In this document: positions 113-23,497 of the stretch, piece by piece
How positions within the stretch are numbered: position 1 is the stretch's first letter
Layout of the letters: each line of letters starts with the position of its first letter
Source: a virus
Taxonomy: Duplodnaviria; Caudoviricetes
Direction: 5' to 3' (one strand)
Virus record (IMG/VR): IMGVR_UViG_3300025529_000035
Location: 1-25,888 of that record
DNA: 25,888 nt
Notes under the pieces: generated by a model
Seen by the model: the letters and a program-made list of their open reading frames with translations, nothing else
Databases searched by the model: none
Told to the model about the DNA's origin: nothing
Made by a program: the position numbers and the translations under genes

Positions 113-147
113 AGGATGCGGGGCGCCCCAATCAGACGCACCGCACA
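113..147 (-). promoter_or_regulatory. Putative phage late promoter copy 1 (endolysin)
   Basis: TGTGCGGTGC (147-138), N19, CATCCT (118-113); 50 nt from motif to ATG 87. Confidence 0.75.
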
Positions 148-317
148 GAGGCGCTATGGCGGCCACTCCATCGGCACGGCGGCCCGCCGAAAGCGACGAT
201 AGCAAAGCCCCACGCCGGAGCGCCCCAAACGAAAAAGGCGGCCCCGATGGCCGCCCCGAAGGAGATGCCGCCGAGGATGGCGGCGATGGCGCCGATCAGC
301 GGCGCCGTGTAGTAGAG

Positions 318-347
318 TGGAGTGCACCCCGTTTGACCGGACAGGCG
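318..347. repeat. IS terminal inverted repeat downstream of orfB (IRR)
   Basis: TGGAGTGCACCCCGTTTGACCGGACAGGCG; near-identical to the reverse complement of 1641-1671. Confidence 0.95.
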
Positions 348-357
348 ACGGTCTGCA

Positions 358-1200
358 TTAAGCACCGGCGGCCTTTGCCCTGAACTCTCGTGGCGAGAGG
401 AAGCGCAAGCCGGAGTGCGGGTGGATTTCATTGTAGTCGTCGAACCATTTCGGCAGCAAGGCGAGGACGGTTTCGGCGTCTGGCAGGATGACGTTTCGGG
501 CGTAATCTCGCTTCAGGGTTTTGACGAAGGCCTCGGAGATTCCATTGCTCTGCGGCGAGCGAACAGGGGTGAAGGCCAACCGTAGCCCAAGTGCTATCGC
601 GGTGGTCGCCGTTTCCCGCGCGATGTAGGCGCTGCCGTTGTCGGACAGCCATTCGACAGGATGCGGCGTTCTCGTCCCGCCGAAGCGCTTCTCGACGGCT
701 TCGACCATCAGATCGCGCACCATCTCGCCCGAGACGCCGGCATGGGCGACGGCCGACCAGGCGATGATCTCACGGTCGCAGGCATCGATGACGAACAGCA
801 CCCGAACGATCTCGCCGTTGCGGCATTTGATCTCGAGGTGGTCCGAGCACCAGCGGATGTTGGAGCGCAGGGCAATGACGACGCCGTCATGGGTGCGGGC
901 CGGACGATAGGCGGTATGGCGCGTCAGCACGAGACCGTTGGCCTGCATGATGCGCAGCACCCGCTTGGCGTTGACCGACGGCAGGTCCTGGGCGCGCCGC
1001 TCGCGGTTGAGCAGAGCCGTGATGCGGCGATAGCCATAGGTCGGCCGCTGATCGACCAGCCTGCGGATCGCGGGCAGCACGGCCACATCTTCAGCCTTGG
1101 TGTATGGCTTGCGCGTCGCCGGGCTTTCGAGAGGGCGTTTCTTCGCCTGCTCGACGAGGTTGGAGCGGGAAACGCCGAGCGTGTCGGCGACCGTCTTCAC
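358..1200 (-). CDS. IS3-family transposase OrfB (HTH plus rve/DDE integrase core)
   Basis: YGYRRITALL, WCSD, WLSDNGSAY, PQSNGISEAFVKTLK, YNEIHPHSGL motifs; GTG start overlaps the orfA stop. Confidence 0.95.
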   Translation of the reverse strand: MKTVADTLGVSRSNLVEQAKKRPLESPATRKPYTKAEDVAVLPAIRRLVDQRPTYGYRRITALLNRERRAQDLPSVNAKRVLRIMQANGLVLTRHTAYRPARTHDGVVIALRSNIRWCSDHLEIKCRNGEIVRVLFVIDACDREIIAWSAVAHAGVSGEMVRDLMVEAVEKRFGGTRTPHPVEWLSDNGSAYIARETATTAIALGLRLAFTPVRSPQSNGISEAFVKTLKRDYARNVILPDAETVLALLPKWFDDYNEIHPHSGLRFLSPREFRAKAAGA

Positions 1201-1610
1201 AGCGAACCGTCCTGATCGAACGAGGCGAGCCGCAACACTGGCTTTTTGGGGGCGGCAAGATCGAGCGCCTCCTTGAGGATCTCGACCTCCATGGTCTTCT
1301 TGCCCAGCATGCGCTCCAGATCACGCACGCGTTTCTCGAGTTCGCGCACACGGCCTGCGCCAACGACATCGTCATCGGCCTGAACGGCGGTCGCACCGCC
1401 TTCGAGCATACGGCGCTTCCACGCAAAGAGCTGGCTGGGTGCGATACCGGCCCGGCGTGCCACATAGGACACCGACATGCCGGGCTGCATGGCCTCTTCG
1501 ACGAGGCGCACTTTCTCGGCCGTGGTCCAGCGCCGCCGGCGCTGCACCGAGGTGATCACTTCAACACGAGGCGAAGGCGAGAACGGATCAGAAGTCATAG
1601 TCATAATCAT
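1197..1610 (-). CDS. IS3-family transposase OrfA (HTH plus leucine zipper)
   Basis: RRRRWTTAEKVRLV...VARRAGIAPSQLFAWKR HTH followed by a coiled coil; exact start among several ATGs is uncertain. Confidence 0.93.
   Translation of the reverse strand: MIMTMTSDPFSPSPRVEVITSVQRRRRWTTAEKVRLVEEAMQPGMSVSYVARRAGIAPSQLFAWKRRMLEGGATAVQADDDVVGAGRVRELEKRVRDLERMLGKKTMEVEILKEALDLAAPKKPVLRLASFDQDGSL
1242..1252 (-). other. Probable -1 programmed frameshift site producing OrfAB
   Basis: CCC AAA AAG in the orfA frame; the -1 frame is open (..KASVAARLVRSGRFAVKTVAD) and continuous with orfB, as is typical of IS3. Confidence 0.7.
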
Positions 1611-1640
1611 AGGCGTATGCCTATGCCTTATCGGCTATGC

Positions 1641-1671
1641 CGCCTGTCCGGTCAAAACAGGGTGCACTCCA
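1641..1671. repeat. IS terminal inverted repeat upstream of orfA (IRL)
   Basis: CGCCTGTCCGGTCAAAACAGGGTGCACTCCA. Confidence 0.95.
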
Positions 1672-1768
1672 TAGAGCGCCCGGCCGGGGAGCCAGTCGGG
1701 CATCCAGCGATCATCCCCGCGCGCACGGTTGAGCACGGCGCAGGCGGCTATGGTAAAGATGGCGGTCG

Positions 1769-1837
1769 TCATAGCGCGGCGGCCTCCGTCCACATGGCGT
1801 CGATTTGCTCCGGCGTCAGACCAAGCGCGGCTCCGCT
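1769..1837 (-). pseudogene. 3' remnant of a tail-fibre-associated small protein gene
   Basis: SGAALGLTPEQIDAMWTEAAAL* resembles the LGLTxEQIDAxF/WxxAAxL C-terminus of small proteins encoded after phage tail fibres. Its TGA overlaps the next ATG (ATGA), but an in-frame TGA lies immediately upstream at 1838-1840. Confidence 0.55.
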
Positions 1838-2057
1838 TCACGTCTTTCAGCTTCCCCGCCCGCCATGCGGCTTCGAGCCGGTCCATGGCCTGCGCATCTC
1901 GCCGAACTCAACGGAATCGATCATGGTGTGGTCCGTTTCATGTAGTCGTTTTGCCAGATAGTTGATTTGATGGGATACGTCATCCACGGCCCGCCCTGCA
2001 GTTGTTTGTCCGCCGAATGGTAGCGGCGCAGGACTGGGCCACGGATACGTTTAGCAT

Positions 2058-4034
2058 TTAGTTTGCGACACGCAATATTCGGAACCCCACTCCGCCAGAA
2101 TCTGCTTCACCGATCTCAACCCTTGACAGCGTTACGGTGCCTCCGCGATTGACAGCCAGCAGAACGCCTACTTGTGAAGGACCAAATGGGTAATCCGCCT
2201 GAACTGAAATTGCACCACTTGAGTAAAGCTGTACCGACGCGTTGGCGGTTACTAGGTGCTGTGTTCCGGCATTAGATACGCGAAGTCCCCCAGCGATGAT
2301 CTTGTACCGCGGGTCCGCTTGGTTTGCTGAGCCTAAAATCGTCGTGGCAGTCCCTGCGTCTGTGACTTGGGTGGTATCCCCAGACAGGACGATGTTGGCA
2401 ATGCTGTCGGCATCAATGTTGACAGTCAACACTCCAGCATCAATGCTCGAACGAATAACTCGGTTCAGGTCAAACGCACCAGATGCGTTTGCCACGGCAC
2501 CCTCAGTGCGCGGGTTGATTACGCACAGGTCGATGACATCCCCGATACCCGCAAGGCCGTCTGCTCGCACTGCTCCGTCGATGGTTTCAAAAGTGTGGTT
2601 TGCGATCAGAAAGCCGGTGCTGGGCCGAGTTAAAACCGTGATCTTGACGCCATGCTTAGAAGCAAATGCAGATGAGCAACCATTGAGCACGATCCCCCGG
2701 CAGTCCACAAACTCAAATGGGTAGCACGGCGCTTTGCCGTGCCATTCATAGGTGCCGAAGGCTTTGCACGCCGTCAGCACAGCCTCCTGTAGATTGGAGA
2801 GGTAGAACAGCGGTGCGGTGGCGGTTGCGTTCTTGTGTCTGGCTAAACAGTTTTCCAATACCACTGTTTGCGAGATGGTGTCAGCCGTGTTATCGGGGTC
2901 AGGCTCGATGCGGTAGCCGTTGTACCCGTCTGCCACGTCTTCCACGTACAGATTGCGCAAAGAAACACCGTCATAAGGCTTTAGCATATGCACGCCGTGG
3001 CCGGTGAATCCATTCATGTGGATGCTCAGGTTTTCGACGCCTGCACCTACCATGCTGTAATAGGAGAGTATTTGGTCGAACTTGAAAACTGCGGCATCGC
3101 CAAGATCGGCGGCAACAGTAATCTTGGTGGCATCCAGTCCCTCGCCTATGATGCGCACACCTGTCCGCTGAAAAAGCGTTTGCCCGGTAACTTTGTACAG
3201 ACCCTTCGGCACAAACAGCACACCCCCGTTGGATTCGAAAAGCGAACCCCCAGAACCGAAATACGCCGCAGCAGCCTGGAATGCGGCCGTGTCATCAGTC
3301 ACACCATCCCCAACCGCGCCGAAATCCTTGACGCTCACGAACTCGCGCAGCTTATCCTGCACGGTGCGATAGACCGCATCAGTGCCCGCCTGAAGGAACG
3401 AAAGTTTGCTCGCACGCACCGCGTCAGGGTGACTGGGGGAAGGTGGATCGAAGACTTTCGGATCGGTGACGGCGCCGTCAGCGATCTTCGACGAGATCAC
3501 TGCATTATCGCCAATGTCGCCGCTGTGAATCTCGTTCGGCTGAAGCGGGATGAAATTCCCGTTCCCGTCCCACCCGACGTACTTGCCGATGCGATCTGCA
3601 ATTGGCGGGAGTTCCAGCCCTTGCTCCCCCAGTGGAACGCGGATCGTCCGGCGAAGGCGCTGAAAGAGTTCGCGGCAGATCGCCGTCAGGGTGTTGAATT
3701 CGGTATTGTGGTCCCGCGCCGGGATGCCGCGCCCCTCGGCGAATTGTGCCTCGGCAGGCCGCCGCGGGGCGCGGTTCCCCTCGATGTAGAGCGAGCCAGA
3801 GATAGGAGCGTCGAAGGAGATCGAGCCGTTCACCCACGTGTTCGGCGCGCCATAGAAGCCCGGCTCCAGCGTACCGGTGAAGCTCCAACCGCTGGTGACA
3901 ACCTGCCCGTTCAGCGTCACCTCGAGATCGGCGCCGGTCGGATCGAAGACCGGGAACGGCACCGGGAACGGGCCGGTCGAGTTGTTGGGCGTGTAGTGAA
4001 CGAAGCGGTCAGCGTTAGCGATGTTGGCGGGCAT
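2058..4034 (-). CDS. Tailspike / receptor-binding protein: N-terminal tail-attachment domain plus pectate-lyase-like beta-helix (putative polysaccharide depolymerase)
   Basis: N-terminal GPFPVPFPVFD..DLEVTLNG adaptor-like region; VSVKDFGAVGDGVTDDTAAFQAA motif followed by beta-helix-like sequence; position after the internal virion genes. Confidence 0.88.
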   Translation of the reverse strand: MPANIANADRFVHYTPNNSTGPFPVPFPVFDPTGADLEVTLNGQVVTSGWSFTGTLEPGFYGAPNTWVNGSISFDAPISGSLYIEGNRAPRRPAEAQFAEGRGIPARDHNTEFNTLTAICRELFQRLRRTIRVPLGEQGLELPPIADRIGKYVGWDGNGNFIPLQPNEIHSGDIGDNAVISSKIADGAVTDPKVFDPPSPSHPDAVRASKLSFLQAGTDAVYRTVQDKLREFVSVKDFGAVGDGVTDDTAAFQAAAAYFGSGGSLFESNGGVLFVPKGLYKVTGQTLFQRTGVRIIGEGLDATKITVAADLGDAAVFKFDQILSYYSMVGAGVENLSIHMNGFTGHGVHMLKPYDGVSLRNLYVEDVADGYNGYRIEPDPDNTADTISQTVVLENCLARHKNATATAPLFYLSNLQEAVLTACKAFGTYEWHGKAPCYPFEFVDCRGIVLNGCSSAFASKHGVKITVLTRPSTGFLIANHTFETIDGAVRADGLAGIGDVIDLCVINPRTEGAVANASGAFDLNRVIRSSIDAGVLTVNIDADSIANIVLSGDTTQVTDAGTATTILGSANQADPRYKIIAGGLRVSNAGTQHLVTANASVQLYSSGAISVQADYPFGPSQVGVLLAVNRGGTVTLSRVEIGEADSGGVGFRILRVAN

Positions 4035-4058
4035 GTCGGCACCTGTTGAGATGCCGAC

Positions 4059-4093
4059 ACCCTGCGATCGCGGGCCGATGCCCGCACCGCACA
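4059..4093 (-). promoter_or_regulatory. Putative phage late promoter copy 2 (tailspike)
   Basis: TGTGCGGTGC (4093-4084), N19, CAGGGT (4064-4059); 49 nt to ATG 4034. Confidence 0.8.
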
Positions 4094-4098
4094 GCGGG

Positions 4099-7000
4099 TT
4101 ACTGCCGCCGCTCCGGAATCCCGAAGGCGTTGTTCACCCCGTCCTCTACTTGATCAAGAAGCCTCCTGATCCAGAACAAATTCTGGAAGAACATCAGCCG
4201 GCGCAGCGCCGTCGTGTCCGAAGCCGTCCACTCGCCGGTGGCGGCGGCGCCCGTCACCTGGGAGACTTTCTCGATCTTGCCAGCCGTCGGCCCAAGTAGC
4301 GCCGACAGGACCGAGCGCGAAGCATAGCGGGACAGCGGCCGGTCGGCTCCAATCAGCCGGAAGGCGTCTAGCTGCCCCCGCGTCGCCTTGGCCGTGAGCG
4401 AGTTCACTTCGTCGAACCACCCCATGACACCGGAGCGCGACAGCCCTTCCTTGATCCAGTCCTGCGGCCGGTCGCTGGCATCCTGCCCCGCGGCCCACGT
4501 GTAGGCCCGATACGACAGCATGCCCAGCGCCACCGAGAAGATGAGCCCCTGCAGGGCAGCAGCGTCGGCACGCTGCAGATTCGCGATCAGCAGGCGCTCG
4601 TTCGCCGCGGCGATGAACGACTTGAACTGCCCGAGCAGGCTCCAGATCGGATCGCTCATCCAGAGCGGCCGTTCAAGGCCGGGCGTCACCACGAGGGCGT
4701 CGGCTTCCTTGCCCATGGCCGCCTCAAAGGCAAGCGCGGCGCCGCGATCCTGCCAGGCACCCGTGTTCGGCAGGCGCACGCCGTCGACCACCTCGCCGCC
4801 GCCCTCCTCGTTGAACGCCTTCCAGATGCGCTCGGCCATGGCCGCGTCGATGTTGTTCTCCGCGAGCATGGTGATGTCTCGCTTGCTCGCCCGTCCTTCC
4901 ACCACGCGGCGGATCATGCGCAGGTGCTCCGACGACGCCACGGAATAGGCAATCGTCTTCACGGCATCCGTCCACGGGGCCTGGAAGTTGACGAGCTGCG
5001 AGCGATTGGCGCCCCACTGCAAGGCGCGCTCGAAGCGGGTATCGGGCCGGTAGCCCTCAATCAGATCGTTGAGCTGGTGCGCGCGGATGTTCAGTTCCGT
5101 CTCGATTGCCACGCCCGTCGCTCGAGCCTGGCGTTTGGCCACGCCGTAGACTTTCGACCGACCGACGAGCCCGGAGAAAAACGGTATCCATCCATCCCGC
5201 AAGACGTTCATGAAGGCATAACGGAACACCACGCCGGCGGCATCGCCGAAGGAGTTGAGCATCGCGCCGCCAAGATCGGCGATGGTATTCCAGGCGTGCA
5301 CAGCTGCCGACACGCGGCCGAGCATGCGGCGGTCGGCACTCCAGCCATAGATGCCACGAATCCGGTCGCGCGTGGCGGCGAGGTCGCGGATGAGCTGGGT
5401 CCGCTCCTTCTCGATGGCAATGCGCTCCGCCTCGGTCTTGGCAGCCGCGGCCTTCGCTGCAGACGCTTCGTTGATCCGCCGCATCTGCTCCGTCATGTTC
5501 ACGTCGCCGAAGCGGGTCGTCAGATGCAGGTCGGGCAGCACCGTCCGCATGACAACTCTCATGATGTGCTCGACGTCCTGCTCGACGAAATCCCACACGA
5601 GCTGCGTAGGGATGGCGAAGTCGCGGGATTTGAGCGAGCCCCGCAGGTCGTCCGACTGTCTCACGCCGCCGGGCTGCGGCGAGGCGATATCGTAGGGCAG
5701 GCGACCATCTGGCGAGCCGAGGATGCGGTCGATGATCTCGTCGGCTCGGCTCGCGATCTCATCGGGCGTCCAGTCGTAATCCGTCTCGACGATGCGCCGG
5801 GCCGCCCGGTCCACTGCCCGATCCGCAGCCCGCAACCGCGGGGCGTTCTCGGCACGGCCGGCCGCCGCCTCGTCCCGTGTCTTGAGCGCAGACACGGCAT
5901 CCGCGGCGGAGTTGCCCTTCCAGCCGCGCAGCTCCTCCTCGAGACGGGCCCGCGTCTTCTCCATCGCCTCGTCGGCAAGAGCCCTCGCCCGTTCCAGCAT
6001 CTCGCGCTGCGCCTGGGCCCGGTCGAGGCGATCCGACAGGATACCGAGCCGCCCGCGGTTCGCTCGCTCCGCCAGGGCAGCCTCGTCGACGCGGGCCTCC
6101 GCAATGCCGAGCTGCCGCGCCTTCGTCCTGCCGGCGCGAATTGCCTTGTCGCGGGCCGCGCGAATATCGGCGATTGCCTCACGCCGAGCGGCGATGATCC
6201 CCGCCACCTGCTCGGCACGGGCACCGGGCGGCACCGGCTGGCCGACGGCCTCCATCGCCGCCAGCTCCCGCTCGAGGTCATCGAGCGTCCGCGGCACGCT
6301 CTCGCCCCGCAGCAGGTAGTACCAGTCATCGGCCGTCTGCGGATCGACGCCAGCCTCGCGCGCCATATCGTCGAGGATACGCACCATCTCGTCGACGCGC
6401 GCCGCCTTGGTCGGCTGTCCGTTCTCGTCGACGAGGAACCACCAGGGCGGGTTGCCGCGCTGGGCCTCGTCGATGATCCGCAGCACCTCGTTGTACGACG
6501 GCCGGCCGTCAGGGAAGGCGAAGCCGAATTGGTCGTAGAGGTATTCGCCCCACTCGTCGATGGTGCGCCCGCGGCCCGTCTTGCGCACGAGGCCGACTAC
6601 CGCGCGGGCGTCGCCGAGAATGGCCACCACCTCGCCGTGGTCGTCGACGATGCCGCCGTTCTTCGCCATCCAGGCAAGGAAGCTCGGCAGCCGGTGGCTC
6701 TTGTTGCGCCCGGTCAGGATGTTGATTGCCGTGCGCACGTCCCCGGTGAGGATCGAGCGCTTTTCCTCCTTCTCGATCTTGTCGAGGTCGGCTTCCGTGA
6801 TCGGCTTATCGGCGCGACGCAGGGCCGCCAGCTCGCGCTCGAGCTCGCGCAGTTGCTCGGTCAGCTCGGGCGAGCGCAATTCCGCCTTCATCGCGTCGAT
6901 GAACTCGGCGAGCTCCGAAATCTCCTCCGCGATGAGCGAGGCCCGCTCCTCCAGCGCGTCAGTCCGCGCCGCTGTGCGGCGCACCTCCATCCCGCGCTCG

Positions 7001-12274: not shown

Positions 12275-12300
12275 GATGACCCTCGCAATTCTCGAGGGCC

Positions 12301-12335
12301 ACACTGCCGCGCGAGGCGAGCGCAGGCACCGCACA
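12301..12335 (-). promoter_or_regulatory. Putative phage late promoter copy 3 (internal virion operon)
   Basis: TGTGCGGTGC (12335-12326), N19, CAGTGT (12306-12301); 51 nt to ATG 12274. Confidence 0.8.
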
Positions 12336-12340
12336 CCGCC

Positions 12341-15183: not shown

Positions 15184-15206
15184 GCGCGGTCTCCCGAATT
15201 GCCCGC

Positions 15207-15241
15207 ACGATGGCGCTCGCCCCCGGACGATGCACCGCACA
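15207..15241 (-). promoter_or_regulatory. Putative phage late promoter copy 4 (tail tube operon)
   Basis: TGTGCGGTGC (15241-15232), N19, CATCGT (15212-15207); 48 nt to ATG 15183. Confidence 0.8.
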
Positions 15242-15243
15242 TG

Positions 15244-15267
15244 AAAAAGCCCGGCACGAGGCCGGGC
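15244..15267 (-). terminator. Intrinsic terminator ending the capsid operon
   Basis: GCCCGGC-CTCGT-GCCGGGC stem-loop followed by TTTTT on the minus strand. Confidence 0.8.
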
Positions 15268-15292
15268 CTTTCGTCCGCCGAGACGGTGAGGG

Positions 15293-15604: not shown

Positions 15605-15640
15605 CGTCGGTTCCCAGGATCAAATTTGGGAGCGCCCCTC

Positions 15641-16069
15641 TTACGGGCACTCCGAAAGCCAGGCCGAGAACGTGATCGACGGCGTGGTCCCACCTGCAAT
15701 CAGCCGCAGCCGCAGGTAGGTGAACTCATCGATCAGATCGTTCGAGACCGGAATGGCGTACCGCCCCGTCGGCGACGTGCGGGCGCCACCGGTGCGGGCC
15801 GCGGTGGGGCCGATCTCAAGCATCGCAAGGTTCTCGATGCTGCCAGAGAAGTTGGCGGCATCCGCGCCCTGCAGCAGAAACGTGTACAGCTCATCCCCGT
15901 CGGTCGCGTCGTAGCTCGTGACATCGATCACGAGCGCCATGTCCTGCCGCCCCTTGCCAATCTTGAGCACGACATCCGAGCCGTTCTTCTGGACGTTGCC
16001 CGTCGCCGTCAAAGTCACGCCTTCGCCGAACAGCGTGTTGGCGTCGAGCGGGTAGTAGCGCTTCGCCAT
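15641..16069 (-). CDS. Capsid decoration / cement protein (BPP-1 Bbp16-like jelly roll)
   Basis: Beta-rich 142 aa directly after the major capsid gene; YLRLRLIAGGTTPSITFSAWL C-terminus; GGAGA RBS. Confidence 0.65.
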   Translation of the reverse strand: MAKRYYPLDANTLFGEGVTLTATGNVQKNGSDVVLKIGKGRQDMALVIDVTSYDATDGDELYTFLLQGADAANFSGSIENLAMLEIGPTAARTGGARTSPTGRYAIPVSNDLIDEFTYLRLRLIAGGTTPSITFSAWLSECP

Positions 16070-16094
16070 TGTCCTATCTCCACCCTTCCCGTTG

Positions 16095-16121
16095 CAGAAA
16101 GGGGCCCGGCGTACCGGGCCC
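16095..16121 (-). terminator. Hairpin / weak terminator after the major capsid gene
   Basis: GGGCCCGG-TACG-CCGGGCCC followed by a short CTTTCT tract. Confidence 0.6.
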
Positions 16122-16126
16122 GCCCA

Positions 16127-17083: not shown

Positions 17084-17108
17084 TTCGTGCTCTCCTCACC
17101 CCTTCCCG

Positions 17109-17900
17109 TCAACCGCGGGCCATCCCAAGCCGCTGCCGCGCGGCCATGAACTTCTGGGCCGGCGTCATCCGGTCCCAGCCCTCGATCTGCCCCGCTCCGG
17201 CCTTCTCGCGCCCGGCCTGCGTGAAGCCGGGCCCGCCGCTCGTGACGGTGCGGATCAGGCGCTCAAGCCCCTCAACCGCAGGGGCAAACTGCAGAAGATG
17301 CTCGAAGAACGGCATCACCTCCGGCCCGAGCTTGGCCGTCAGGAAGTTCTTGACCGCCGCCACGCGGTCGGCGCCCTTCGGGCCCAGCGCTTCGAGCTGC
17401 TTACCTTTCAGGGCCTCGATGTTCTGGAGCTCAGCGATCTGGTGCTTGGCGTACTCGCCAACCAGGCGCTCGAATCCGGCCTGGTCGAGGCCGAGCTGAT
17501 GCGCAATCTGCCGCCCGAAATTGACCATCGGGTCGTTCGCATCGAGCTGGAAATCGAAGCCAACCGGCGCCTTCCAGTCGGCCGGCAGCTTGAGCTCGTA
17601 AGCGTCCGGCTTCTCCGGCACCGCCGCGCGGCGCGAATCCTCCGCGGCCTTGAAGGCGGCGAGGTCGTCCAGATATGCCTTGAGGTCGGCGCCCTTGATC
17701 TCGCCTTTCTCGGCATCCCAGAACTGCTCAGCCAGCCAGTCGGGGCGCTGCGGTCGATCAGGCGGGGACGCGCCGGCGAACCCCTCGGGCGCGACCGCCG
17801 CCGTGCTCGCGGGCATACCGCTGCCGGAGCCGTTCGAGGTTGAGGTCGTCGTCTGCGTCGTCGCCGCTGTCGCCGTGGCCCCTGCGTTCGCTGTCGTCAT
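17109..17900 (-). CDS. Capsid scaffolding / assembly protein
   Basis: Low-complexity N-terminus, RPDWLAEQFWD, VPEKPDAYELKLP motifs; located between portal and capsid. Start either ATG 17900 or GTG 17909. Confidence 0.8.
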   Translation of the reverse strand: MTTANAGATATAATTQTTTSTSNGSGSGMPASTAAVAPEGFAGASPPDRPQRPDWLAEQFWDAEKGEIKGADLKAYLDDLAAFKAAEDSRRAAVPEKPDAYELKLPADWKAPVGFDFQLDANDPMVNFGRQIAHQLGLDQAGFERLVGEYAKHQIAELQNIEALKGKQLEALGPKGADRVAAVKNFLTAKLGPEVMPFFEHLLQFAPAVEGLERLIRTVTSGGPGFTQAGREKAGAGQIEGWDRMTPAQKFMAARQRLGMARG

Positions 17901-18108
17901 CGTCCGCACTCACCGCAAATCCCAGGATGGTTGCGGCCAATCTGCGGGCGCCCTCATGCTCATGCACCGCACAGGACGGGGAACCAGGCGGCATGACCTC
18001 CAGAAGCTGCCGCCGCAGCCACAGAACGGCCTTCTTGCCGTCCCCCGGGAACGGGCGATCCGTCAGTATCCGATGCCACGCCTGGGCCAGCTCTTGATCG
18101 GGGCTCAT
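17758..18108 (-). CDS. Small conserved-position phage protein (Bbp19-like)
   Basis: ATGA overlap with the portal stop; GKKAVLWLRR...EGARRL pattern; the 3' part overlaps the scaffold gene. Confidence 0.65.
   Translation of the reverse strand: MSPDQELAQAWHRILTDRPFPGDGKKAVLWLRRQLLEVMPPGSPSCAVHEHEGARRLAATILGFAVSADDDDSERRGHGDSGDDADDDLNLERLRQRYAREHGGGRARGVRRRVPA
17939..17973 (-). promoter_or_regulatory. Putative phage late promoter copy 5 (scaffold-capsid operon), embedded in a CDS
   Basis: TGTGCGGTGC (17973-17964), N19, CAGATT (17944-17939). Confidence 0.75.
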
Positions 18109-19664
18109 GCGACCTCCGTACCTGCCGGCATACCGCCGCCACCGCCCAGAACGGGCGCGAGCTGCTGCACCGCTCGCGCGATCTCTTCCTGCGAGCGCAG
18201 CACCACCACGCTGTCGCGCAGCTTCTCCTTGATGTTCTCCAGCGTCTTCGGCCCGTCGACGATCACCTCGGCCGTCTGCGGCAGGTAGGCCCTCGCCATC
18301 TCAAGAATGCGGCCGGCAATCTGCACGTCCTGGTGCTCCTGCGCCTGCTCGGTCGGGTCATAGGGCACGAGAGCGATTTCGTTGCCGTTGACCTTCACCG
18401 GCGCAATGGCGCCGCGCTGTTCGAGCAGGTACTTGAACCGCAGGAACACCTGCGCTGGAAACTCCTTCCAGAACACCTTGCCCGGCGTGCCGATGCGGCG
18501 CTTGGCCCGTGCTAGCTCGTCAAGCCACTGTTCCGCCGTCGGAGGCGTCTTGCCGACCTGTTGAGGGAAGTCGATGAAGTGCAGACGGCGGATGCGCGCC
18601 TCGATCTTCTGGAATGTGTACTCCGCGGTCATCGCATCCGAGCCGAAATCCATCGGCAGGAACGGCGCGCCCGAGCCCCACGGCCGCGCCGGATAGCCCA
18701 TGCCCGGCTCGATGCCGCCCGACAGGTTGATCACCCCGTCGTCGGCATAGAAGAATGGCTTGTGTATCTGGAAGTCGCGCGCCTCGATGTCGAGCTTTTC
18801 GAGCTCGTCGAGGCGGCGAAGCTCAGGAAGCGCCTGCAGCGTCGGGCCGTCGCCATACGGGAACGACTGGTCGACATTAATGCGCCCGACGATGAGCGGG
18901 CAGGAGCCCTCGCCGCGCAGCACGCCATCGTCGACAACCCTGTCGCCGATCATGATGACCCACTGCCACACGACATCCGAGGTGTCGTCCCACCGGCGCC
19001 AGAAGCCCCACCGCACCTGGCACGATCTGTTCGGGTCGTCCTTCACCTTCCGCCGAATGCCGTCAGGCAACCGCACCCCAGGCAGAAGCGCGGGAATGTG
19101 CCGGTACCGCGTCGAGCGGACGATGAAGCGGTCATCAACCTCGCCATAGGGCCCGACGTTGATCTCCAGCTCCCGTAACGGGACGTGCTGGCAGACGATG
19201 GGCTCGTTCGGCCGCAGGCTGTCTATCCAGAGCGCAACGGTGCCGAGCGATAGGTCAGGCATGAATGCCTGGGCCGCGGCGGCGTAGAAATTCGACGCCT
19301 TGATCGCGGCCATGATCTTCGCCGTCTGCTCGTCAATGTCGTCCTTAATGTCGTTGAACTCATCCTCCGACATCTCGATGCCGGGCTTCTGGTCGCACCA
19401 GTTGATCACCTCCGGCATGAAGGTGTTCAGCACCTCGGTGGCGAAGTCCTGGGCGACCTCCATGGCGAGCGAGGTATGCAGGAGGGAGGATTCGTCCTCG
19501 CGCGCCCTGTCAGGGTTCGTGATGACGTTCGACGAGACGTCCTTCGACCGGCGCGGCGCCGTGAAGAAATAGCCCTCGCGCAGATCAACTTCGATCTGCG
19601 ACTTGCAGGCGCGGGCGTCCTTGAGACGCTGCACCGCCTCCTTCTCGAGCGCGGTCGCCGCCAT
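18105..19664 (-). CDS. Portal (head-to-tail connector) protein
   Basis: 519 aa; DLSLGTVAL, YGDGPTLQALPELRRL and TPPTAEQW motifs of T7-type portals; synteny. Confidence 0.9.
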   Translation of the reverse strand: MAATALEKEAVQRLKDARACKSQIEVDLREGYFFTAPRRSKDVSSNVITNPDRAREDESSLLHTSLAMEVAQDFATEVLNTFMPEVINWCDQKPGIEMSEDEFNDIKDDIDEQTAKIMAAIKASNFYAAAAQAFMPDLSLGTVALWIDSLRPNEPIVCQHVPLRELEINVGPYGEVDDRFIVRSTRYRHIPALLPGVRLPDGIRRKVKDDPNRSCQVRWGFWRRWDDTSDVVWQWVIMIGDRVVDDGVLRGEGSCPLIVGRINVDQSFPYGDGPTLQALPELRRLDELEKLDIEARDFQIHKPFFYADDGVINLSGGIEPGMGYPARPWGSGAPFLPMDFGSDAMTAEYTFQKIEARIRRLHFIDFPQQVGKTPPTAEQWLDELARAKRRIGTPGKVFWKEFPAQVFLRFKYLLEQRGAIAPVKVNGNEIALVPYDPTEQAQEHQDVQIAGRILEMARAYLPQTAEVIVDGPKTLENIKEKLRDSVVVLRSQEEIARAVQQLAPVLGGGGGMPAGTEVA

Positions 19665-19670
19665 GGCCGA

Positions 19671-19889
19671 TCACCGTGCCGCCGTGGCGATGGACCGGGC
19701 GCCGAACGTCCGCAGGAGCCGGTTCGTGTCTCGGGCAAGCAGGGCCTGCATGGCGCCGGCCTGCGCCTCTTCCGCCTCGCGCCGCTGCCGTTCGATCTCG
19801 GCCCGCTGCTGAGCAAGCCGTTGCTCTTCCTGGATCTGCTGCGCGATCATCATGCGCCGCTGGGAGCTGCCGGAGAATGCGTTTCCCAT
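19671..19889 (-). CDS. Small coiled-coil protein upstream of the portal, 72 aa
   Basis: MGNAFSGSSQRR..; GGAGG RBS; start revised from the ORF track to fit the promoter. Confidence 0.7.
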   Translation of the reverse strand: MGNAFSGSSQRRMMIAQQIQEEQRLAQQRAEIERQRREAEEAQAGAMQALLARDTNRLLRTFGARSIATAAR

Positions 19890-19912
19890 GGGTCGGACCT
19901 CCATTCGGCCCG

Positions 19913-19947
19913 ACCCTCTCCCCGCGGCGCGAAGTCCGCACCGCACA
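19913..19947 (-). promoter_or_regulatory. Putative phage late promoter copy 6 (portal operon)
   Basis: TGTGCGGTGC (19947-19938), N19, GAGGGT (19918-19913); 48 nt to ATG 19889. Confidence 0.8.
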
Positions 19948-19951
19948 GGGC

Positions 19952-20368
19952 TCAGTCGACGAGCGCGCCACCCTGCCGCAGCAGCGCCCGATAGAGCCCG
20001 TCTGGCCGCAATGCCTGCGTCCGGCAACCGACGAGATGCGCAATCGCCGGCACGCACCAGAAACCCACGCGGAACCAGAACCGCCGACCATCGCGCGGCG
20101 AGAACGCCACCGTCACCGCGTGGTCGCGAATCCGGCTCATGTGCTCCCACGCCAGCGCGCCGTCGGTTATCACGGCGATCCGCGAGCGGCGAAGGCTCAC
20201 GTCGTAGAACACCCAGTGCCCGCTCTCCGGTATCCAGCCAGCTGCCGATACGTGCTTGAACCGGCCGAGCGCCAGCCACGACAGCCACCGCGACCGCGCC
20301 CGCGTCTCGAAGAACACGAACCACGTCGCCGGCTCGACGCCTGGGCTCTCGAACGCGCGATCCGCCAT
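19952..20368 (-). CDS. Hypothetical protein, possibly a permuted papain-like (NlpC/P60) fold, 138 aa
   Basis: Start MADRAFES with GGAGG RBS. His motif (GRFKHVSA) precedes Cys motif (FWCVPAIAHLVG) and a LRPDGLY tail. Confidence 0.6.
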   Translation of the reverse strand: MADRAFESPGVEPATWFVFFETRARSRWLSWLALGRFKHVSAAGWIPESGHWVFYDVSLRRSRIAVITDGALAWEHMSRIRDHAVTVAFSPRDGRRFWFRVGFWCVPAIAHLVGCRTQALRPDGLYRALLRQGGALVD

Positions 20369-20369
20369 G

Positions 20370-20624
20370 TCAGTCCTCCATGAAGAGCATCTTCGCGTGT
20401 TCGATGACGCCAACCGTGCGAACCGCTCCAGGCGACGATTGCCGGTAGCCGACCTCATCGCCGTTCGCGAACGCGACGAAAATCGTGTCGACCTGCCGCT
20501 CGCCGGCATCAATCTCCCGTAACAGCGACACGAGCACGTCGCGAGGCGTCCATTTCGAGCCGTCAAGCTCCCTGCTGGCCCGGATTTCGCCTATCGACAT
20601 CGGCGCCTTCGAGAAGTCGTCCAT
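20370..20624 (-). CDS. Hypothetical phage protein, 84 aa
   Basis: ATG overlaps the terL stop (TGATG); MDDFSKAPMSIGEIRA..WTPRDVLVSLLREID. Confidence 0.75.
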   Translation of the reverse strand: MDDFSKAPMSIGEIRASRELDGSKWTPRDVLVSLLREIDAGERQVDTIFVAFANGDEVGYRQSSPGAVRTVGVIEHAKMLFMED

Positions 20625-22228
20625 CACGACACCCGCCGCAGCGAGCGGGCCCCCCGATACCACTTCACCGGCTGGTTCGATCCGGCCTCCCCGGGCCGCG
20701 CTCGGCCCACCATCGCCCGGCCCTCGCCGGCGCCCAGCAGCAGGTATTGCAGCGCGTCCGCAATGTCCGAGTAGCGGTCCTTCACCGGCACCGTCCGCTG
20801 GTCGTCACCCTTCTTGAAGCGGTAGCCGCCGGCCATCGCCATCTTCAGCGTCACCACCGACGGCGACAGCAGGAACCGCGGCGCGCCGTCCCGCATCGTG
20901 TTCAGCGCGTACTCCACCACCTCAAGGCGCGTGGCGATGTCGTTCGTCGGCACCGGCGCCGGTCGCACGCTCATTCCGAACGACGCGAACACGTCGTAGG
21001 CCGTCACGTCCGACGCCTGCGTCTTGTCCTGCCCCTTCGGGTCGCCGTGCAGCCGCAGGCGTCCGTACCGGATAGCCTTCTCCACGGACTCCGTGTCCTC
21101 GCCGTCGAGAAGCCCTGGGCAATGCTGGTACAGCCACCGCCGAACGCGCGGCGCGAACACCGACGCGCCCTGATCGCTTCCGACGAGCTCGCCAATGATC
21201 TGCCAGCGGTCGTTGATGATCTGCCCGAACACCGCCGCCGGCCGCCGGCCAAAGTCCAGCCCCACCTCGACCGGCCAGTTCGCGTTGTACCGCAGCAGCT
21301 CTTTCGCGACGTGCGTCTCCTCGCGGAACATCGGCCACACGGCCTGCCCGTCAATCGGCGCCGTGATCCGGTTCATGATCGAGCTGTCGATCCAGCGTTT
21401 CGACTTGCCCTTGATCGTTTCCAGGTACAGCGGCCGGCCGCCGATCTTCGGGATCCATTTCAGGTTTTCGGCTTCCGGGTTCAGCTTGTAGTCGACAACC
21501 GTCTTCCCATCGGCGCCGAATACCTCAATCAGCCCCGGCGGCTGCACGAAATACTCCCAGCCCTCCGGCCACACCCATTCGGCCCGCTCTTCCTCCGGCA
21601 TGTCCTCGGGCAACGGCACCTCGCCCGTCAGCCGCGGCAGCCAGTGGTCCTCCGTCGGAGAGTTCAGGTCAGCGAACAGCCCCGACCACGTGGCCCCGCC
21701 ATCCTTCACGGCCGGGTAGTAGCCGATGCGCGACTCCGCCTCATCAAACACCTCCTTCGGAATGTACTGCAGCTCATTGATCCAGCCGCCCGTCCATTCC
21801 GTCGAGCGCAGCTTCGACACGTCCTCCGGCTTGTCGAGCGCCAGGAACACCACCTCCGCCAGCACGTCCCCCTTGCGCAGGTAATGCACCATCGGCTTCG
21901 ACCACGTGAAACGGCCGAAATCCCGCTCCGGAAACCAGTCCAGCCACGTCTTCACGGTCGAGCGCTGCAGCTCCGGATACGAATTGCGGATCACGAACCA
22001 CCGCGACCGCCGCAGCCCATCCGGACCCGGTGCCTGCTCGCACGCCCGCCGGTAAATCTCCAGGCAGCACGCCGACGAAGTGCCCGAGCGGATCGGCCCG
22101 CGGATGATCCGCACCCGCGCATTCGACAGCAGAAACCCACGCAGCACCTTCCCGTCGGGCTCGTAGATCGGCCGCCCGTCCGCATCGCGCTCAATCCGCG
22201 GCCGATCCTCGGCGTCAACGTCCGTCAT
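20624..22228 (-). CDS. terL: Terminase large subunit, 534 aa
   Basis: P-loop GPIRSGTS, RNSYPEL..TVKTW, Walker B GWINE, nuclease VGLDFGRRPAAV and SDIADALQY. Start revised to ATG 22228 (ATGA coupling). Confidence 0.93.
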   Translation of the reverse strand: MTDVDAEDRPRIERDADGRPIYEPDGKVLRGFLLSNARVRIIRGPIRSGTSSACCLEIYRRACEQAPGPDGLRRSRWFVIRNSYPELQRSTVKTWLDWFPERDFGRFTWSKPMVHYLRKGDVLAEVVFLALDKPEDVSKLRSTEWTGGWINELQYIPKEVFDEAESRIGYYPAVKDGGATWSGLFADLNSPTEDHWLPRLTGEVPLPEDMPEEERAEWVWPEGWEYFVQPPGLIEVFGADGKTVVDYKLNPEAENLKWIPKIGGRPLYLETIKGKSKRWIDSSIMNRITAPIDGQAVWPMFREETHVAKELLRYNANWPVEVGLDFGRRPAAVFGQIINDRWQIIGELVGSDQGASVFAPRVRRWLYQHCPGLLDGEDTESVEKAIRYGRLRLHGDPKGQDKTQASDVTAYDVFASFGMSVRPAPVPTNDIATRLEVVEYALNTMRDGAPRFLLSPSVVTLKMAMAGGYRFKKGDDQRTVPVKDRYSDIADALQYLLLGAGEGRAMVGRARPGEAGSNQPVKWYRGARSLRRVS

Positions 22229-22479
22229 ACCCGCACCCATCCCTCGGCGCCCTGCACGAACGTCCCTTCCGTCGTCTCGACCATCAGCTTCCCGCCAAAC
22301 ACCGTCGACGACCGAAGCTCGCCAGGCGGCATCGCACCACCCGCCACGCCAACACCCTCCTCGGGCCGCCACTCAGGCCACGGCTCGCCACGCGCCTCCG
22401 CCGCGCGAATGCGCTCCATGTGCGCACTCCACGCCTCCTCCTGCCGCTTTCGCCGCAGAACCTCCCGCGTCGTCGCCAT
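22225..22479 (-). CDS. Hypothetical phage protein, 84 aa
   Basis: GGAGG RBS before ATG 22479; stop coupled to the terL start. Confidence 0.65.
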   Translation of the reverse strand: MATTREVLRRKRQEEAWSAHMERIRAAEARGEPWPEWRPEEGVGVAGGAMPPGELRSSTVFGGKLMVETTEGTFVQGAEGWVRV

Positions 22480-22716
22480 CAGACCCTCCAACCCAGAATG
22501 TTCCGGGCCCAGAAATTCTCCAGACACCCCCCGGATGTTCCCCGCGGAAATCGTGTGGGGAGGGGAGGACGTCCAACTTTCGCGCGCGTTTTGCCCCCAC
22601 CCCCGCCCCGGCGCGCGCGTCCAGCGGCGAAGGGGGGCGGGGCCGGTCGCTGCACTGCACCATGGCGGCGCCCGAGCGCGCCCGAGCCGATGCCGTCGCC
22701 TCGCCGAGCACGTCGA

Positions 22717-22733
22717 GTTAACCGGCGCTTAAC
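22717..22733. promoter_or_regulatory. CtrA-binding consensus site
   Basis: GTTAACCGGCGCTTAAC matches TTAA-N7-TTAAC on both strands; intergenic, within very GC-rich DNA. Confidence 0.65.
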
Positions 22734-22744
22734 GCGAACCATCG

Positions 22745-23224
22745 TCATTCGTCGTGCTCGATCAAGGGCTTGCCGGAATCCGTTCCCGACAACCCGACCG
22801 AGCGCGGCCCCTCAGCCGGCCCGTCCAGGCGGATGACGTAGCCTGCAATGACGTTCTGGCCGCCGTTGATCGTGATGCCGCTGCCTTCCTCGGAGCCGTC
22901 GAGCGCGCGCGCGGCCTCCAGAGCGACCTTCATCGTCGCGGCCGTGGCACCCGGCTCGAGGCCGCGGTCTCGCACCGTCCGGCGCAGCAGGATGTTGCGG
23001 GCCCTCTCGCTCTCGGCGAGCACCTCAATCTCGCGCATGAACTGCCTGCGGACAGCCGGGTCGCGCATGATGAGGCGAGCGCGGTGGCGCCGGATGCCGA
23101 CCTTGTCGGCGGCGTCTTCGAGGCGTTCACCCTCGATCAGGAGGTTGAGGAGCTGGCGGACGCGCGGGATCGCCAGGAGCGTCTTGCCGGATGAGTTGAT
23201 CGGAGGGACCGCGGGCTTGCTCAT
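22745..23224 (-). CDS. Probable terminase small subunit, 159 aa
   Basis: N-terminal HTH-like LEDAADKVGIRRHRARLIM, helical core, C-terminal GYVIRLD strand; position upstream of terL. Start revised to ATG 23224 because GTG 23350 is inside the promoter motif. Confidence 0.7.
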   Translation of the reverse strand: MSKPAVPPINSSGKTLLAIPRVRQLLNLLIEGERLEDAADKVGIRRHRARLIMRDPAVRRQFMREIEVLAESERARNILLRRTVRDRGLEPGATAATMKVALEAARALDGSEEGSGITINGGQNVIAGYVIRLDGPAEGPRSVGLSGTDSGKPLIEHDE

Positions 23225-23321
23225 GGTGGAGAGGTTGGATCGCCTGCCTTCGCTTCCGCTCGGCTGGCTCGCTGGTCGCTCGCCACCGGCGAGAAGAACG
23301 CGCGTGGTTGGTCGCGCGAGG

Positions 23322-23356
23322 AGGATCGTTTTTTTCGGCTTCGGCGGCACCGCACA
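23322..23356 (-). promoter_or_regulatory. Putative phage late promoter copy 7 (terminase operon)
   Basis: TGTGCGGTGC (23356-23347), N19, GATCCT (23327-23322). Confidence 0.75.
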
Positions 23357-23487
23357 GGGCGATTTGCTTGCGCGTGCGGGGCCGTTTCTTTGTTATCTCA
23401 ATGCGTTATCGTTTCGCATCCGTTACGACATGCCGCTATGCGTCGTGCTTGACAAGTGCTGAGCAAGTCGTGCCTGGACGATTCCCG

Positions 23488-23497
23488 TGTGCGGTGC
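23488..23497 (+). promoter_or_regulatory. Motif copy 8, divergent, upstream of the GIY-YIG/T5orf172 gene
   Basis: Exact TGTGCGGTGC, 32 nt before ATG 23530; the nearest A-N3-T hexamer (GATCAT) is at N17 rather than N19. Confidence 0.55.

Follow-up and report, generated by a model that had tools for sequence, protein, structure and literature searches.

The DNA analysed here, a stretch of 25,888 nucleotides referred to below as the window, represents the late region of a temperate podovirus of Alphaproteobacteria. Its late genes, the promoter sites in front of them and two hairpins are listed in Table 1, together with a candidate regulator gene from a near-identical provirus.

Table 1. Probable promoter sites, genes behind them and hairpins in the window, and the candidate regulator gene
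Feature	Position	Strand	Details
Gene behind divergent copy	23530-24219	+	T5orf172/GIY-YIG-type; ATG 23530 at nt 33
Divergent copy	23488..23532	+	box 23488-23497; spacer 20: A present, T absent
Late promoter 1	23322..23356	-	box 23347-23356; GATCCT; predicted +1 23315; 91-nt leader
TerS-like gene	22745-23224	-	behind promoter 1; ATG 23224
TerL	20624-22228	-	follows TerS-like gene
Late promoter 2	19913..19947	-	box 19938-19947; GAGGGT; predicted +1 19906
Small gene	19671-19889	-	behind promoter 2; ATG 19889
Portal	18105-19664	-	follows small gene
Late promoter 3	17939..17973	-	box 17964-17973; CAGATT; predicted +1 17932
Likely scaffold	17109-17909	-	behind promoter 3; GTG 17909
Major capsid, GP7-type	16127-17083	-	follows likely scaffold
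Terminator-like hairpin and T run	15242..15270	-	stem 15263-15248; closes capsid block immediately ahead of promoter 4
Late promoter 4	15207..15241	-	box 15232-15241; CATCGT; predicted +1 15200
Tail adaptor	14542-15183	-	behind promoter 4; ATG 15183
Nozzle	12341-14545	-	follows tail adaptor
Late promoter 5	12301..12335	-	box 12326-12335; CAGTGT; predicted +1 12294
Ejection-protein block	11753-12274, 8529-11759, 4099-8529	-	behind promoter 5; small head gene (ATG 12274), gene with SLT domain, third gene
Late promoter 6	4059..4093	-	box 4084-4093; CAGGGT 4059-4064; predicted +1 4052
Tailspike	2058-4034	-	behind promoter 6; ATG 4034
Terminator-like hairpin	235-257		upstream of promoter 7
Late promoter 7	113..147	-	box 138-147; -10-like CATCCT 113-118; predicted +1 106
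Endolysin	ATG 87	-	behind promoter 7; extends past window edge
Candidate regulator gene	L167:6193-6705		provirus G001, outside the window; 170 aa, pI 10.8, basic

Box copies and late genes in the window

An earlier reading made from the letters alone (the sequence-only reading) had reported eight exact copies of a 10-nucleotide box, seven on the minus strand and one on the plus strand, and a recount found all of them at the coordinates and on the strands reported. In comparison with these eight, 300 dinucleotide shuffles of the window gave a mean of 0.11 exact copies (maximum 1). With one mismatch allowed, there are 10 copies in the window, compared with a mean of 2.88 and a maximum of 7 in 100 shuffles. 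The two one-mismatch copies (6973 and 13227, plus strand) lie within genes and show no -10 pattern.

Behind each of the seven minus-strand copies the 21st nucleotide after the box is an A and the 25th a T (7/7), with the hexamers that had been described. The frequency of this A-N3-T pattern on the minus strand is 0.030; seven out of seven would arise by chance with a probability of about 2e-11, or 1e-8 once 40 offsets and 16 base pairs are allowed for. The -10 pattern does not extend to the plus-strand copy (TCATCA at spacer 19). This copy would be a weaker, possibly leaderless promoter, and divergent copies facing terS are also present in the relatives G003 and G012 and in phage Mwe-JY08. Start codons had been placed 48-54 nucleotides behind six boxes, and we count 50, 49, 51, 48, 54 and 48 intervening nucleotides; behind the seventh minus-strand box, the ATG of the TerS-like gene follows at nucleotide 123. 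The predicted +1 is a purine in six of the seven window sites, and the -1 is a pyrimidine in all seven. A consensus promoter scan of window positions 1-20000 returned 0 promoters. Among the RNA runs that contain the window stretch there are five clear RNA rows (share 0.56-0.97). Four runs compared with the stretch are contigs, which may include DNA and show no starts. In near-identical records the spacer and the free hexamer positions of promoter 2 vary, while the box, the A and the T are constant.

As to the gene names, the TerS-like gene is without a family match and is named by its position, and the endolysin is GH19-like in the near-identical provirus (E 2.4e-5, slightly below the Pfam cut-off). 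The late region had been divided into seven separately driven modules, of which the promoter ahead of each block stands but the sealing is doubtful: a terminator-like hairpin lies just upstream of only two of the seven minus-strand sites, and the box of promoter 3 lies within a small gene (17758-18108). Given these two observations, what we have is probably less a set of seven sealed modules than nested units, each a boost on transcripts that read through. Hairpins akin to that at 15242..15270 also precede the adaptor box in many relatives, and the coding-region box of promoter 3 changes variant in step with its genome's remaining sites. Antitermination of the Q type was rejected as the principal late control; the 30 non-late ORFs scanned in the near-identical provirus include no Q-like protein.

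The box and its probable promoter register in relatives

The box had been regarded as specific to one phage, and this view has to be given up. It is family-wide, and genome-specific variants of it stand ahead of the same genes in dozens of relatives, GTGC being followed by GGTG, GTTG, TTTG, TGTG, AGTG or ATT. Our family set comprises 42 related sequences (1.17 Mb), whose kinship means that the counts are not independent events. The pattern GTGCN[GT]TG, which was picked after viewing these 42 sequences, occurs in them 306 times on the late strand and 96 times on the other strand (140 and 101 for the reversed control). An unsupervised 7-mer choice of the variant of each genome was too noisy; the fixed pattern and a motif-blind anchor were used instead.

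Among 273 non-redundant late-strand sites, A-N3-T was found at spacer 19 in 104, at spacer 20 in 24 and at spacer 18 in 11 cases, other spacers giving 4-12, and an ATG stands at nucleotide 32 behind the box in 40. Three controls for A-N3-T and ATG position were flat. In 36 of 137 family sites the ATG falls exactly at the predicted +1. The motif-blind anchor on the adaptor ATG finds GTGC 40 nucleotides upstream in 23 of the 31 sequences with an assignable ATG, and 39-42 nucleotides upstream in 26 of them (6 further sequences had no ATG assigned); this distance implies leaderless starts at the predicted +1. Similarly, the spike gene has an orthologous site in 7/7 relatives, with GTGC 40-41 nucleotides ahead of its ATG (exactly 40 in 6/7, motif-blind). 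The numbering proposed earlier, with the box at -41 to -32 and +1 at nucleotide 32, agrees with these data, as leaderless ATGs in relatives fall exactly there. In summary, the register is constant: box at -41..-32, hexamer at -12..-7, and ATG or a purine at +1.

Furthermore, across 28 genomes the majority variant of the genome concerned was found at 128 of 138 sites (shuffled mean 73, maximum 86 in 2000 shuffles), which argues for one trans-acting reader per genome. Genomes of the family have 7-10 promoters with a single box each. A scan of the collection with the window's own box and -10 gave 118 loci, nearly all of them lone matches, and these were read as mostly chance; among them, four listed rows are near-identical records and the contigs L098 and L103 are family members.

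According to PMC8407463, the conserved triad of sigma70 promoters is TTG at -35..-33, and -7T is absent from most alphaproteobacterial promoters. It had been suggested that the box replaces the -35 element. Its bases 7-9, however, fall on -35..-33; of 137 family sites, 78 have TTG there and the other 59, with all window sites among them, GTG. As judged from the sequences, the box appears to extend the -35 element rather than substitute for it. T at -12 is found in just 10 of the 137 sites, so the core promoter appears weak. With these patterns in hand, we have little doubt that the boxes are late promoters.

A candidate regulator and its distribution

Either a phage-encoded class II activator or an alternative sigma factor had been envisaged as the reader of the box. 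The former is the best reading; a sigma gene was not found, with no region 2/4 match in 30 non-late ORFs of G001 or 32 ORFs of the window. G001 is the near-identical provirus, 93% complete, and very small or fast-evolving genes would escape the ORF list on which these scans depend. The sigma, Q, Mor/C, Ogr, RinA and ArpU families had no match among the 30 non-late ORFs (7 of them rescanned), and no Mor match was seen at E 0.05 for the candidate described below or 29 other ORFs.

The search of the early region for an HTH gene, which the sequence-only reading had recommended, yielded an XRE-type candidate in G001. Its gene is the last of the early operon, after the replication genes and before terS. 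The predicted structure (pLDDT 83) has a four/five-helix XRE fold. The XRE domain is N-terminal, and behind it comes a basic tail (residues ~105-159), a putative C-terminal helix pair. The nearest fold is C.AhdI (Z 9.3, rmsd 2.0, 62 aligned), and other near folds are C.Esp1396I, HipB and phage repressors; Pfam HTH_3 matches at E 0.007 only, below the cut-off. In an Atlas search the top matches were unnamed viral clusters, with KGG only at 0.82, a lead.

The candidate is common to 15/15 relatives tested (10/10 of those reached via the capsid gene) and to 6/6 records at least 90% complete. For comparison, the next most shared of 26 non-late ORFs is the integrase, in 11/15 relatives. The complete TerL relative G440/L310, our sole complete negative control, is without both the XRE protein and the box. 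In sampled genomes the protein was found in 2/401 class-wide, 4/401 order-wide (narrow profile) and 22/401 family-wide. Only one cultured phage record, Mwe-JY08, has it, and a literature search on this phage found no paper. At 50% identity the family numbers 2,789 clusters at E <= 1e-10, some of which may be ordinary XREs. On this evidence, the XRE-type protein is probably the late-promoter activator; that it contacts sigma region 4 directly has, in our view, an even chance of being right.

We see a mixed picture for the co-variation of apparent partner residues and bases. Tyr51 in helix 3 changes to His together with box base 6 = A twice, in phage lineages (G019; L291-L294), Tyr changes to Thr together with T once (L277), and Lys54 changes to Thr together with box base 2 G to A once (L377). 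The exceptions are an 8-member TTTG clade that retains Tyr and two satellite-like copies (G791, G569c) that pair His with a G-type box. The His proteins of L290-L294 are distant relatives (E 1e-5 to 1e-7), and no single XRE residue accounts for G/T at box base 7. For the same 32 genomes, with states set by hand and 5/32 rows reached via XRE itself, the variants require the minimum of 7 changes on the tree of XRE and 8 on each of those of TerL and portal; the variants thus follow overall kinship, and the comparison does not single out XRE. A forward test of the pairing of His with A, using an A-type box and a leaderless ATG, gave 16 loci, of which only G019 itself is a phage late gene, and XRE was present in 0/12 of the records searched.

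The same parts occur outside complete phages. We compared 18 genome contexts that lack matches to TerL, portal, capsid, adaptor and nozzle; in 11 of them there is a box before a late-type gene (TerS-like, ejection, spike, decoration-like, XRE, or an ORF heading such a block); in the remaining 7 such a box was not seen. The combination of box, A(-11) and an ATG at nucleotides 30-35 was found in 6/40, compared with 0/30, 1/41 and 0/36 for control words. XRE copies from bacterial genomes lie ahead of a full late cluster in 1/20. We put forward, with more doubt than confidence, a wider scheme in which the XRE activator family would drive the virion genes of temperate alphaproteobacterial podoviruses via a -35-fused box and a swappable protein-DNA code, and in which PICI-like satellites would share activator and box with TerS-like and their own ejection/spike genes, plugging into or trans-activating the late programme of a helper.

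Readings of the box and comparison with known systems

Our preferred account, which we consider likely as a whole, is that of host sigma70 late promoters switched on by a phage XRE-type activator. Host sigma70 polymerase would read each box and the A-N3-T hexamer 19 nucleotides behind it. Upon induction the last gene of the early operon would give the 170-aa XRE protein, which may bind the non-palindromic half-box NGTGC(G/T/A), either as a monomer or in a head-to-tail arrangement. It speaks against this account that XRE proteins for the most part bind to palindromes as dimers, and the box is no palindrome. Placed on the box's upstream half, next to sigma region 4, the protein would recruit or stabilise RNA polymerase in class II style. 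The promoters of the terminase, portal, scaffold/capsid, tail, ejection, spike and lysis genes would then fire together, each internal promoter boosting a nested unit.

The late promoters could have another phage reader (an alternative sigma factor, an AsiA/MotA-style pair or a small factor), with XRE only co-travelling. The variants do track kinship about equally on the TerL, portal and XRE trees, G001 also has a winged-helix protein (L167:8026-8559, weak Trans_reg_C match), a gene in the CII position and a GapR-like gene, and a very small or fast-evolving reader would have escaped the ORF list. We think this unlikely, however, given that the scanned ORFs lack the regulator families named above, that the remaining DNA-binding candidates of G001 occur in only 0-7/15 relatives, that the -35 TTG in 78/137 sites is a need of host sigma70, and that box and XRE recur jointly in capsid-less elements. 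It is quite unlikely, too, that XRE is a repressor or timer covering the -35 of self-sufficient promoters: its gene closes the early lytic operon, so the protein would be made at late-gene onset and not in the lysogen, and with -12 T in 10/137 sites and the -35T lost in the window's lineage the cores look weak enough to do without repression. What speaks for a repressor is that the box overlaps -35, the usual repressor seat, that HipB and phage repressors are among the near folds, and that T-type variants combine TTG at -35 with A(-11) and T(-7), perhaps enough for some basal activity.

Alternatively, a host regulator might read the box, for example PhaR/AniA with the consensus TGCRNYGCASMA and the common core TGC-N3-GC. 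The window box fits TGCRNYGC (PMC6201568), and one of the copies in host DNA beyond the provirus (L216) agrees with the entire 12-mer. Nevertheless, the 12-mer TGCRNYGCASMA (consensus from PMC6201568) is found in 0/153 phage sites and the 9-mer in 21/153, variants such as GTGCTTTG break the consensus, and all sites of one genome switch variant together. Nor is the box frequent in the host chromosome, an outcome that the sequence-only reading had named as adverse to a phage promoter: the provirus has 8 exact copies, whereas the 3.7 Mb of host DNA around it contain just 6. Three of these 6 have A-N3-T at spacer 18 or 20, above the ~9% per site expected. We regard a host reader as quite improbable, and a translation, RNA-processing or packaging signal that is no promoter element as very improbable indeed. 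The fixed distance from box to start codon in many relatives would suit such a signal, but leaderless genes place the box upstream of any mRNA, the hexamer distance is constant while the start-codon distance runs from 32 to >120 nucleotides, the spacing tolerance of 18-20 equals that of sigma70 promoters, and an Rfam scan of the window matched no family. An alternative sigma factor (no sigma match in the ORFs scanned), the PhaR box (0/153) and an RNA family (no Rfam match) were rejected as explanations.

Literature searches on the box or on such a late system returned nothing relevant; earlier papers on phage genomes may still contain it. Late control has been worked out for a few enterobacterial and Gram-positive phages, and our searches found no description of it for these alphaproteobacterial podoviruses, a widespread group. 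The sigma70 account with an XRE-type activator names a DNA site, the position where transcription would start and a protein as candidate. Natural pairs of box and protein variants would yield a small recognition code and offer orthogonal inducible promoters for rhizobia and methylotrophs. A box at -40 from a leaderless ATG fixes gene starts and flags late units in unannotated genomes, and a satellite-helper circuit is suggested by the elements that have these parts but no capsid genes.

In kind, such a system is familiar. P2 Ogr and P4 delta serve several activator-dependent late promoters, the satellite having its own activator and site copy; they are zinc-finger proteins that act at a dyad near -55 and contact the alpha subunit. 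The capsid-less elements described here resemble P4 delta, as they appear to carry their own activator and box copies, whereas no Ogr_Delta match was found in the G001 ORFs scanned. Lambda CII, cI at PRM and the controller proteins of restriction-modification systems are HTH activators seated next to -35, in contact with sigma region 4; as dimers or tetramers they recognise direct or inverted repeats, and they are not known to drive virion genes. Among solved folds, those of the controller proteins C.AhdI and C.Esp1396I come closest to our candidate, which, unlike this group, adds a putative basic C-terminal helix pair and has a proposed site without a dyad.

Our candidate resembles Ltr (RinA, LtrB/C) of Gram-positive siphophages in being small, basic and encoded between the replication genes and terS (PMC3753634), and it has no NCBIfam or Pfam match to RinA/ArpU. 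Ltr acts at one terS promoter, on DNA repeats and by its C-terminal domain, whereas here we see one box at each of many promoters, an N-terminal XRE domain and alphaproteobacterial podoviruses. With Mu C it shares a temperate phage, several late promoters and a small phage activator (a candidate in our case). As described in PMC2582627, the late promoters of Mu (Plys, PI, PP, Pmom) show a recognisable -10 and use host sigma70, with C over the -35 region, and the site of C, of the Mor/C family, is a 16-bp imperfect dyad centred at -43.5. Such a dyad is absent here, conservation being limited to the box (-41..-32) with mixed flanking columns; the site, 10 bp long and no palindrome, retains the -35 triad in the majority of members, the promoters number 7-10, with many leaderless ones in relatives, and the XRE-type candidate gave no Mor match. 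By analogy, then, late activation in the phage would seem to resemble that by Mu C or Ltr, but through a site and a protein family not described so far.

Box copies in the window and in related genomes

In this podovirus-type phage the window corresponds to the late region, where the minus strand has genes for a TerS-like protein (named by position), TerL, portal, a likely scaffold, a GP7-type capsid protein and two tail-tube proteins, followed by three proteins of ejection type, one of which has an SLT domain, and then by the tailspike, an IS3 element and the beginning of the endolysin. The eight exact copies of the 10-base box, TGTGCGGTGC, were all found where the sequence-only reading had placed them (mean 0.11 and maximum 1 in 300 shuffles). 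Counting from the end of the box, all 7 minus-strand copies have, as claimed, A at nt 21 and T at nt 25, with a chance of about 1e-8 when offsets and base pairs are allowed for. Our recount likewise gave a start codon 48-54 nt after six copies; that of the TerS-like gene lies 122 nt after its box. The plus-strand copy has the A (at a box-to-hexamer spacer of 20) and an ATG at nt 33, and lacks the T. Near-identical records show four variant forms of these sites, with all changes outside the box and A(-11); the sole change at the place equivalent to T(-7) restores the T, in the plus-strand copy.

G001, a 44-kb provirus whose capsid protein is identical, has the same eight copies, and its non-late part (18 kb) is free of the box. 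The frequency of the box in the host chromosome had been proposed as a check, and there it is rare: in the genome of Chelatococcus composti, where record L204 has an identical candidate regulator, there are 8 copies within 25 kb and 6 in the remaining 3.7 Mb (reversed control 3). Among these 6, the hexamer with A(-11) and T(-7), that is A-N3-T, stands at spacer 19 in none and at 18 or 20 in three (L216, L217, L229).

The IS3-bearing stretch has no aligned counterpart in G001. In the variable region that lies upstream of terS, the window has a TacAT-type toxin-antitoxin pair and G001 has different cargo (SH3 protein, SRAP). Module exchange is seen at the tailspike, where G001 has a different one at the same promoter position, and at the capsid, whose tree conflicts with the TerL and portal trees.

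Coordinates of the features and distribution of the box variants
Feature	Location	Strand	Remark
IS3-family element	window 318-1671		between tailspike and endolysin
IS3 transposase ORFs	window 358-1200 and 1197-1610
IS3 terminal inverted repeats	window, about 318-347 / 1641-1671
Stretch noted for module exchange	window 4112-8529
Capsid	window 16127-17083
T5orf172/GIY-YIG-type gene	window 23530-24219	+	behind divergent box; C-terminal CxC...CxxC motif
TacA-like antitoxin and GNAT acetyltransferase	window 24715-25547	-
XRE candidate	L167:6193-6705		G001
XRE gene with box upstream	L189:13744-13998		G019
XRE gene with box upstream	L447:11107		G630
Host 10-mer copy L216	G027:C1:229536		extends into full PhaR consensus 12-mer
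Box variant GTGCTTTG	TerL relatives L265-L275, L282, L322
Box variant GTGCTGTG	TerL relative L277
Box variant GTGCATT	TerL relatives L286, L290-L294
Box variant GTGCGTCG	TerL relative L258
Box variant ATGCGTTG	L377		scaffold and adaptor sites
Box variant GTGCGTTG
Satellite-like elements	L432-L449		G507, G497, G569, G556, G599, G590, G803, G630, G028, G542, G791

The box, which had been supposed to be phage-specific, is found family-wide, with variants before the same genes in relatives. At 41-58% capsid identity, 14 of 15 long records have GTGCG(T/G)TG on the late strand before these genes, and in the sole exception, G019, GTGCAGTG occupies these positions. In the 28 genomes with at least three sites, the genome's majority variant accounts for 128 of 138 sites (73 when shuffled, maximum 86 in 2000 shuffles). 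The variant switch also reaches the copy that lies within the small gene ahead of the scaffold, where it alters the encoded residues. Phage Mwe-JY08 (L168, PP395640.1), deposited with a cyanobacterial host, has an ortholog of the T5orf172/GIY-YIG-type gene at the same place. Since it has a GapR-like gene, 66% G+C, 70% TerL identity to the window and a full box set, it looks alphaproteobacterial, and the host label may be open to question.

Probable promoter register and anatomy

In 42 mutually related sequences (1.17 Mb), from whose inspection the pattern was picked, the late strand has 306 occurrences of GTGCN[GT]TG and the other strand 96 (reversed control 140 and 101); the spacer and ATG peaks are independent of the box letters. 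Among 273 non-redundant late-strand sites, A-N3-T lies at spacer 19 in 104, at 20 in 24, at 18 in 11 and at each remaining spacer from 12 to 27 in 4-12, and 40 sites have an ATG at nt 32. Control patterns gave neither the spacer-19 nor the nt-32 ATG peak. We also used a motif-blind test, anchored on the adaptor gene ATG with the box pattern unused (six sequences had no assignable ATG). Of 31 sequences, 23 have GTGC starting 40 nt before this ATG and 26 have it 39-42 nt before; in the other five, including the window, the distance is 47-63 nt and the leader mostly purine-rich. With the spike gene as anchor, six of seven relatives give 40 nt and one gives 41. An ATG that follows the -10 hexamer by six bases leaves no space for a ribosome-binding site and is the mark of a leaderless mRNA, so that +1 would fall at nt 32 and the box at -41 to -32; the ATG peak and both anchors agree with the placement proposed earlier. 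On this sequence evidence the boxes are very probably promoters, and it is most improbable that they are something else.

The sequence-only reading let the box replace the -35 element. Instead, its bases 7-9 fall on -35 to -33, where the 137 sites that have a -10 read TTG (78) or GTG (59), and the box would thus extend that element. One published account gives TTG at -35 to -33 as the conserved sigma70 triad and describes the -7T as absent from most alphaproteobacterial promoters (PMC8407463); in our sites the -7T is kept. Given the position of bases 7-9 and a T at -12 in only 10 of 137 sites, the anatomy appears to be that of a weak sigma70 core with a six-base upstream specificity half-box. 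The -35T has been lost in the window's lineage.

The idea of seven separately driven modules is probably too strict. In positions 1-20000 (the terS site lies outside) a terminator-like hairpin stands directly upstream of two of the seven minus-strand sites, adaptor and lysis; only this placement is notable, because 10 hairpins were found against 10.8 in shuffles. Read-through transcripts probably contain the remaining late units as nested parts.

Candidate regulator and satellite-like elements

A phage activator or an alternative sigma factor had been expected. The 30 non-late ORFs of G001 comprise integrase, recombination, CI/Cro, GapR-like, RusA and replication genes and have no match to sigma, Q, Mor or Ogr families, nor do the rescanned G001 ORFs to RinA/ArpU; what they offer is an XRE-type activator candidate. 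Its gene closes the early operon, and the protein, of 170 aa and pI 10.8, combines a predicted XRE fold with a helical tail that is basic. All 6 records at least 90% complete have it, and phmmer found it in 15 of 15 relatives, 10 of 10 among those reached via the capsid; the runners-up were integrase (11/15) and other DNA-binding candidates (0-7/15). One complete TerL relative has neither the protein nor the box. The family has 2,789 representatives at E <= 1e-10 and no name in Pfam, PHROGs or NCBIfam. In position, size and charge the candidate agrees with the Ltr pattern described in PMC3753634. In G019 and G630 the XRE gene has its own box upstream, which hints at positive feedback; the G019 protein lacks the basic tail, and its gene lies directly upstream of terS.

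For the same 32 genomes, the eight box variants require 7 changes on the XRE tree against 8 on the TerL and 8 on the portal tree, and the trees do not settle the link. Tyr51 of the XRE protein is replaced by His with A at base 6 in two separate lineages and by Thr with T in one, and Lys54 by Thr with A at base 2 in one. These pairings are suggestive of the XRE protein as the box reader; exceptions are the TTTG clade, which retains Tyr, and two satellite-like His copies with G-type boxes, and a prospective scan for further cases came out empty.

Better evidence comes from a held-out sample. Within one bacterial family the XRE profile matched 22 of 401 genomes, and we took 20 of the 30 listed places, only one of which has the full late cluster downstream. 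In 18 contexts (both sides, 11.7-31.5 kb; some are cut off by the contig end and are perhaps prophage remnants) there was no TerL, portal, capsid, adaptor or nozzle match. In many of them a TerS-like, ejection-type, spike or decoration-like gene adjoins XRE, and in 11 a box directly precedes such a gene or block. A box with A(-11) and an ATG at nt 30-35 was seen for 6 of 40 boxes, against 0/30, 1/41 and 0/36 for control words. Judging by their gene content, these small integrated elements, with XRE and the genes named and without capsid, portal or TerL, are likely satellites that supply their own injection proteins; two of them, in G507 and G497, also encode a P4-type primase and an integrase. 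A satellite's box may be read by the helper's protein. If only the kinship of late genes were at work, it would be hard to see why XRE and box move jointly into a different type of element.

Alternative readers and known systems

What the sequences show is the anatomy, the register, the family distribution and the co-occurrence; the best explanation is that the boxes are late promoters, probably switched on by the phage XRE-type protein. It is unlikely that another phage factor reads the box. Rather less likely are a repressor role for the XRE protein and, to the same degree, a host regulator such as PhaR, whose 12-mer is matched by 0 of 153 sites.

A literature search, with supplements and most subscription papers outside its coverage, found nothing relevant on the box or on a system of this sort in these phages. 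Activation of late promoters by the XRE-type protein would be of a known kind: Mu C-dependent late promoters work similarly (PMC2582627), as do the Ltr activators. In contrast to Mu C, Ltr and P2 Ogr/P4 delta, there is here no dyad and no Mor, RinA or Ogr family. P2 Ogr/P4 delta is a known satellite-linked system, and the link of box and XRE protein to satellites recalls it.
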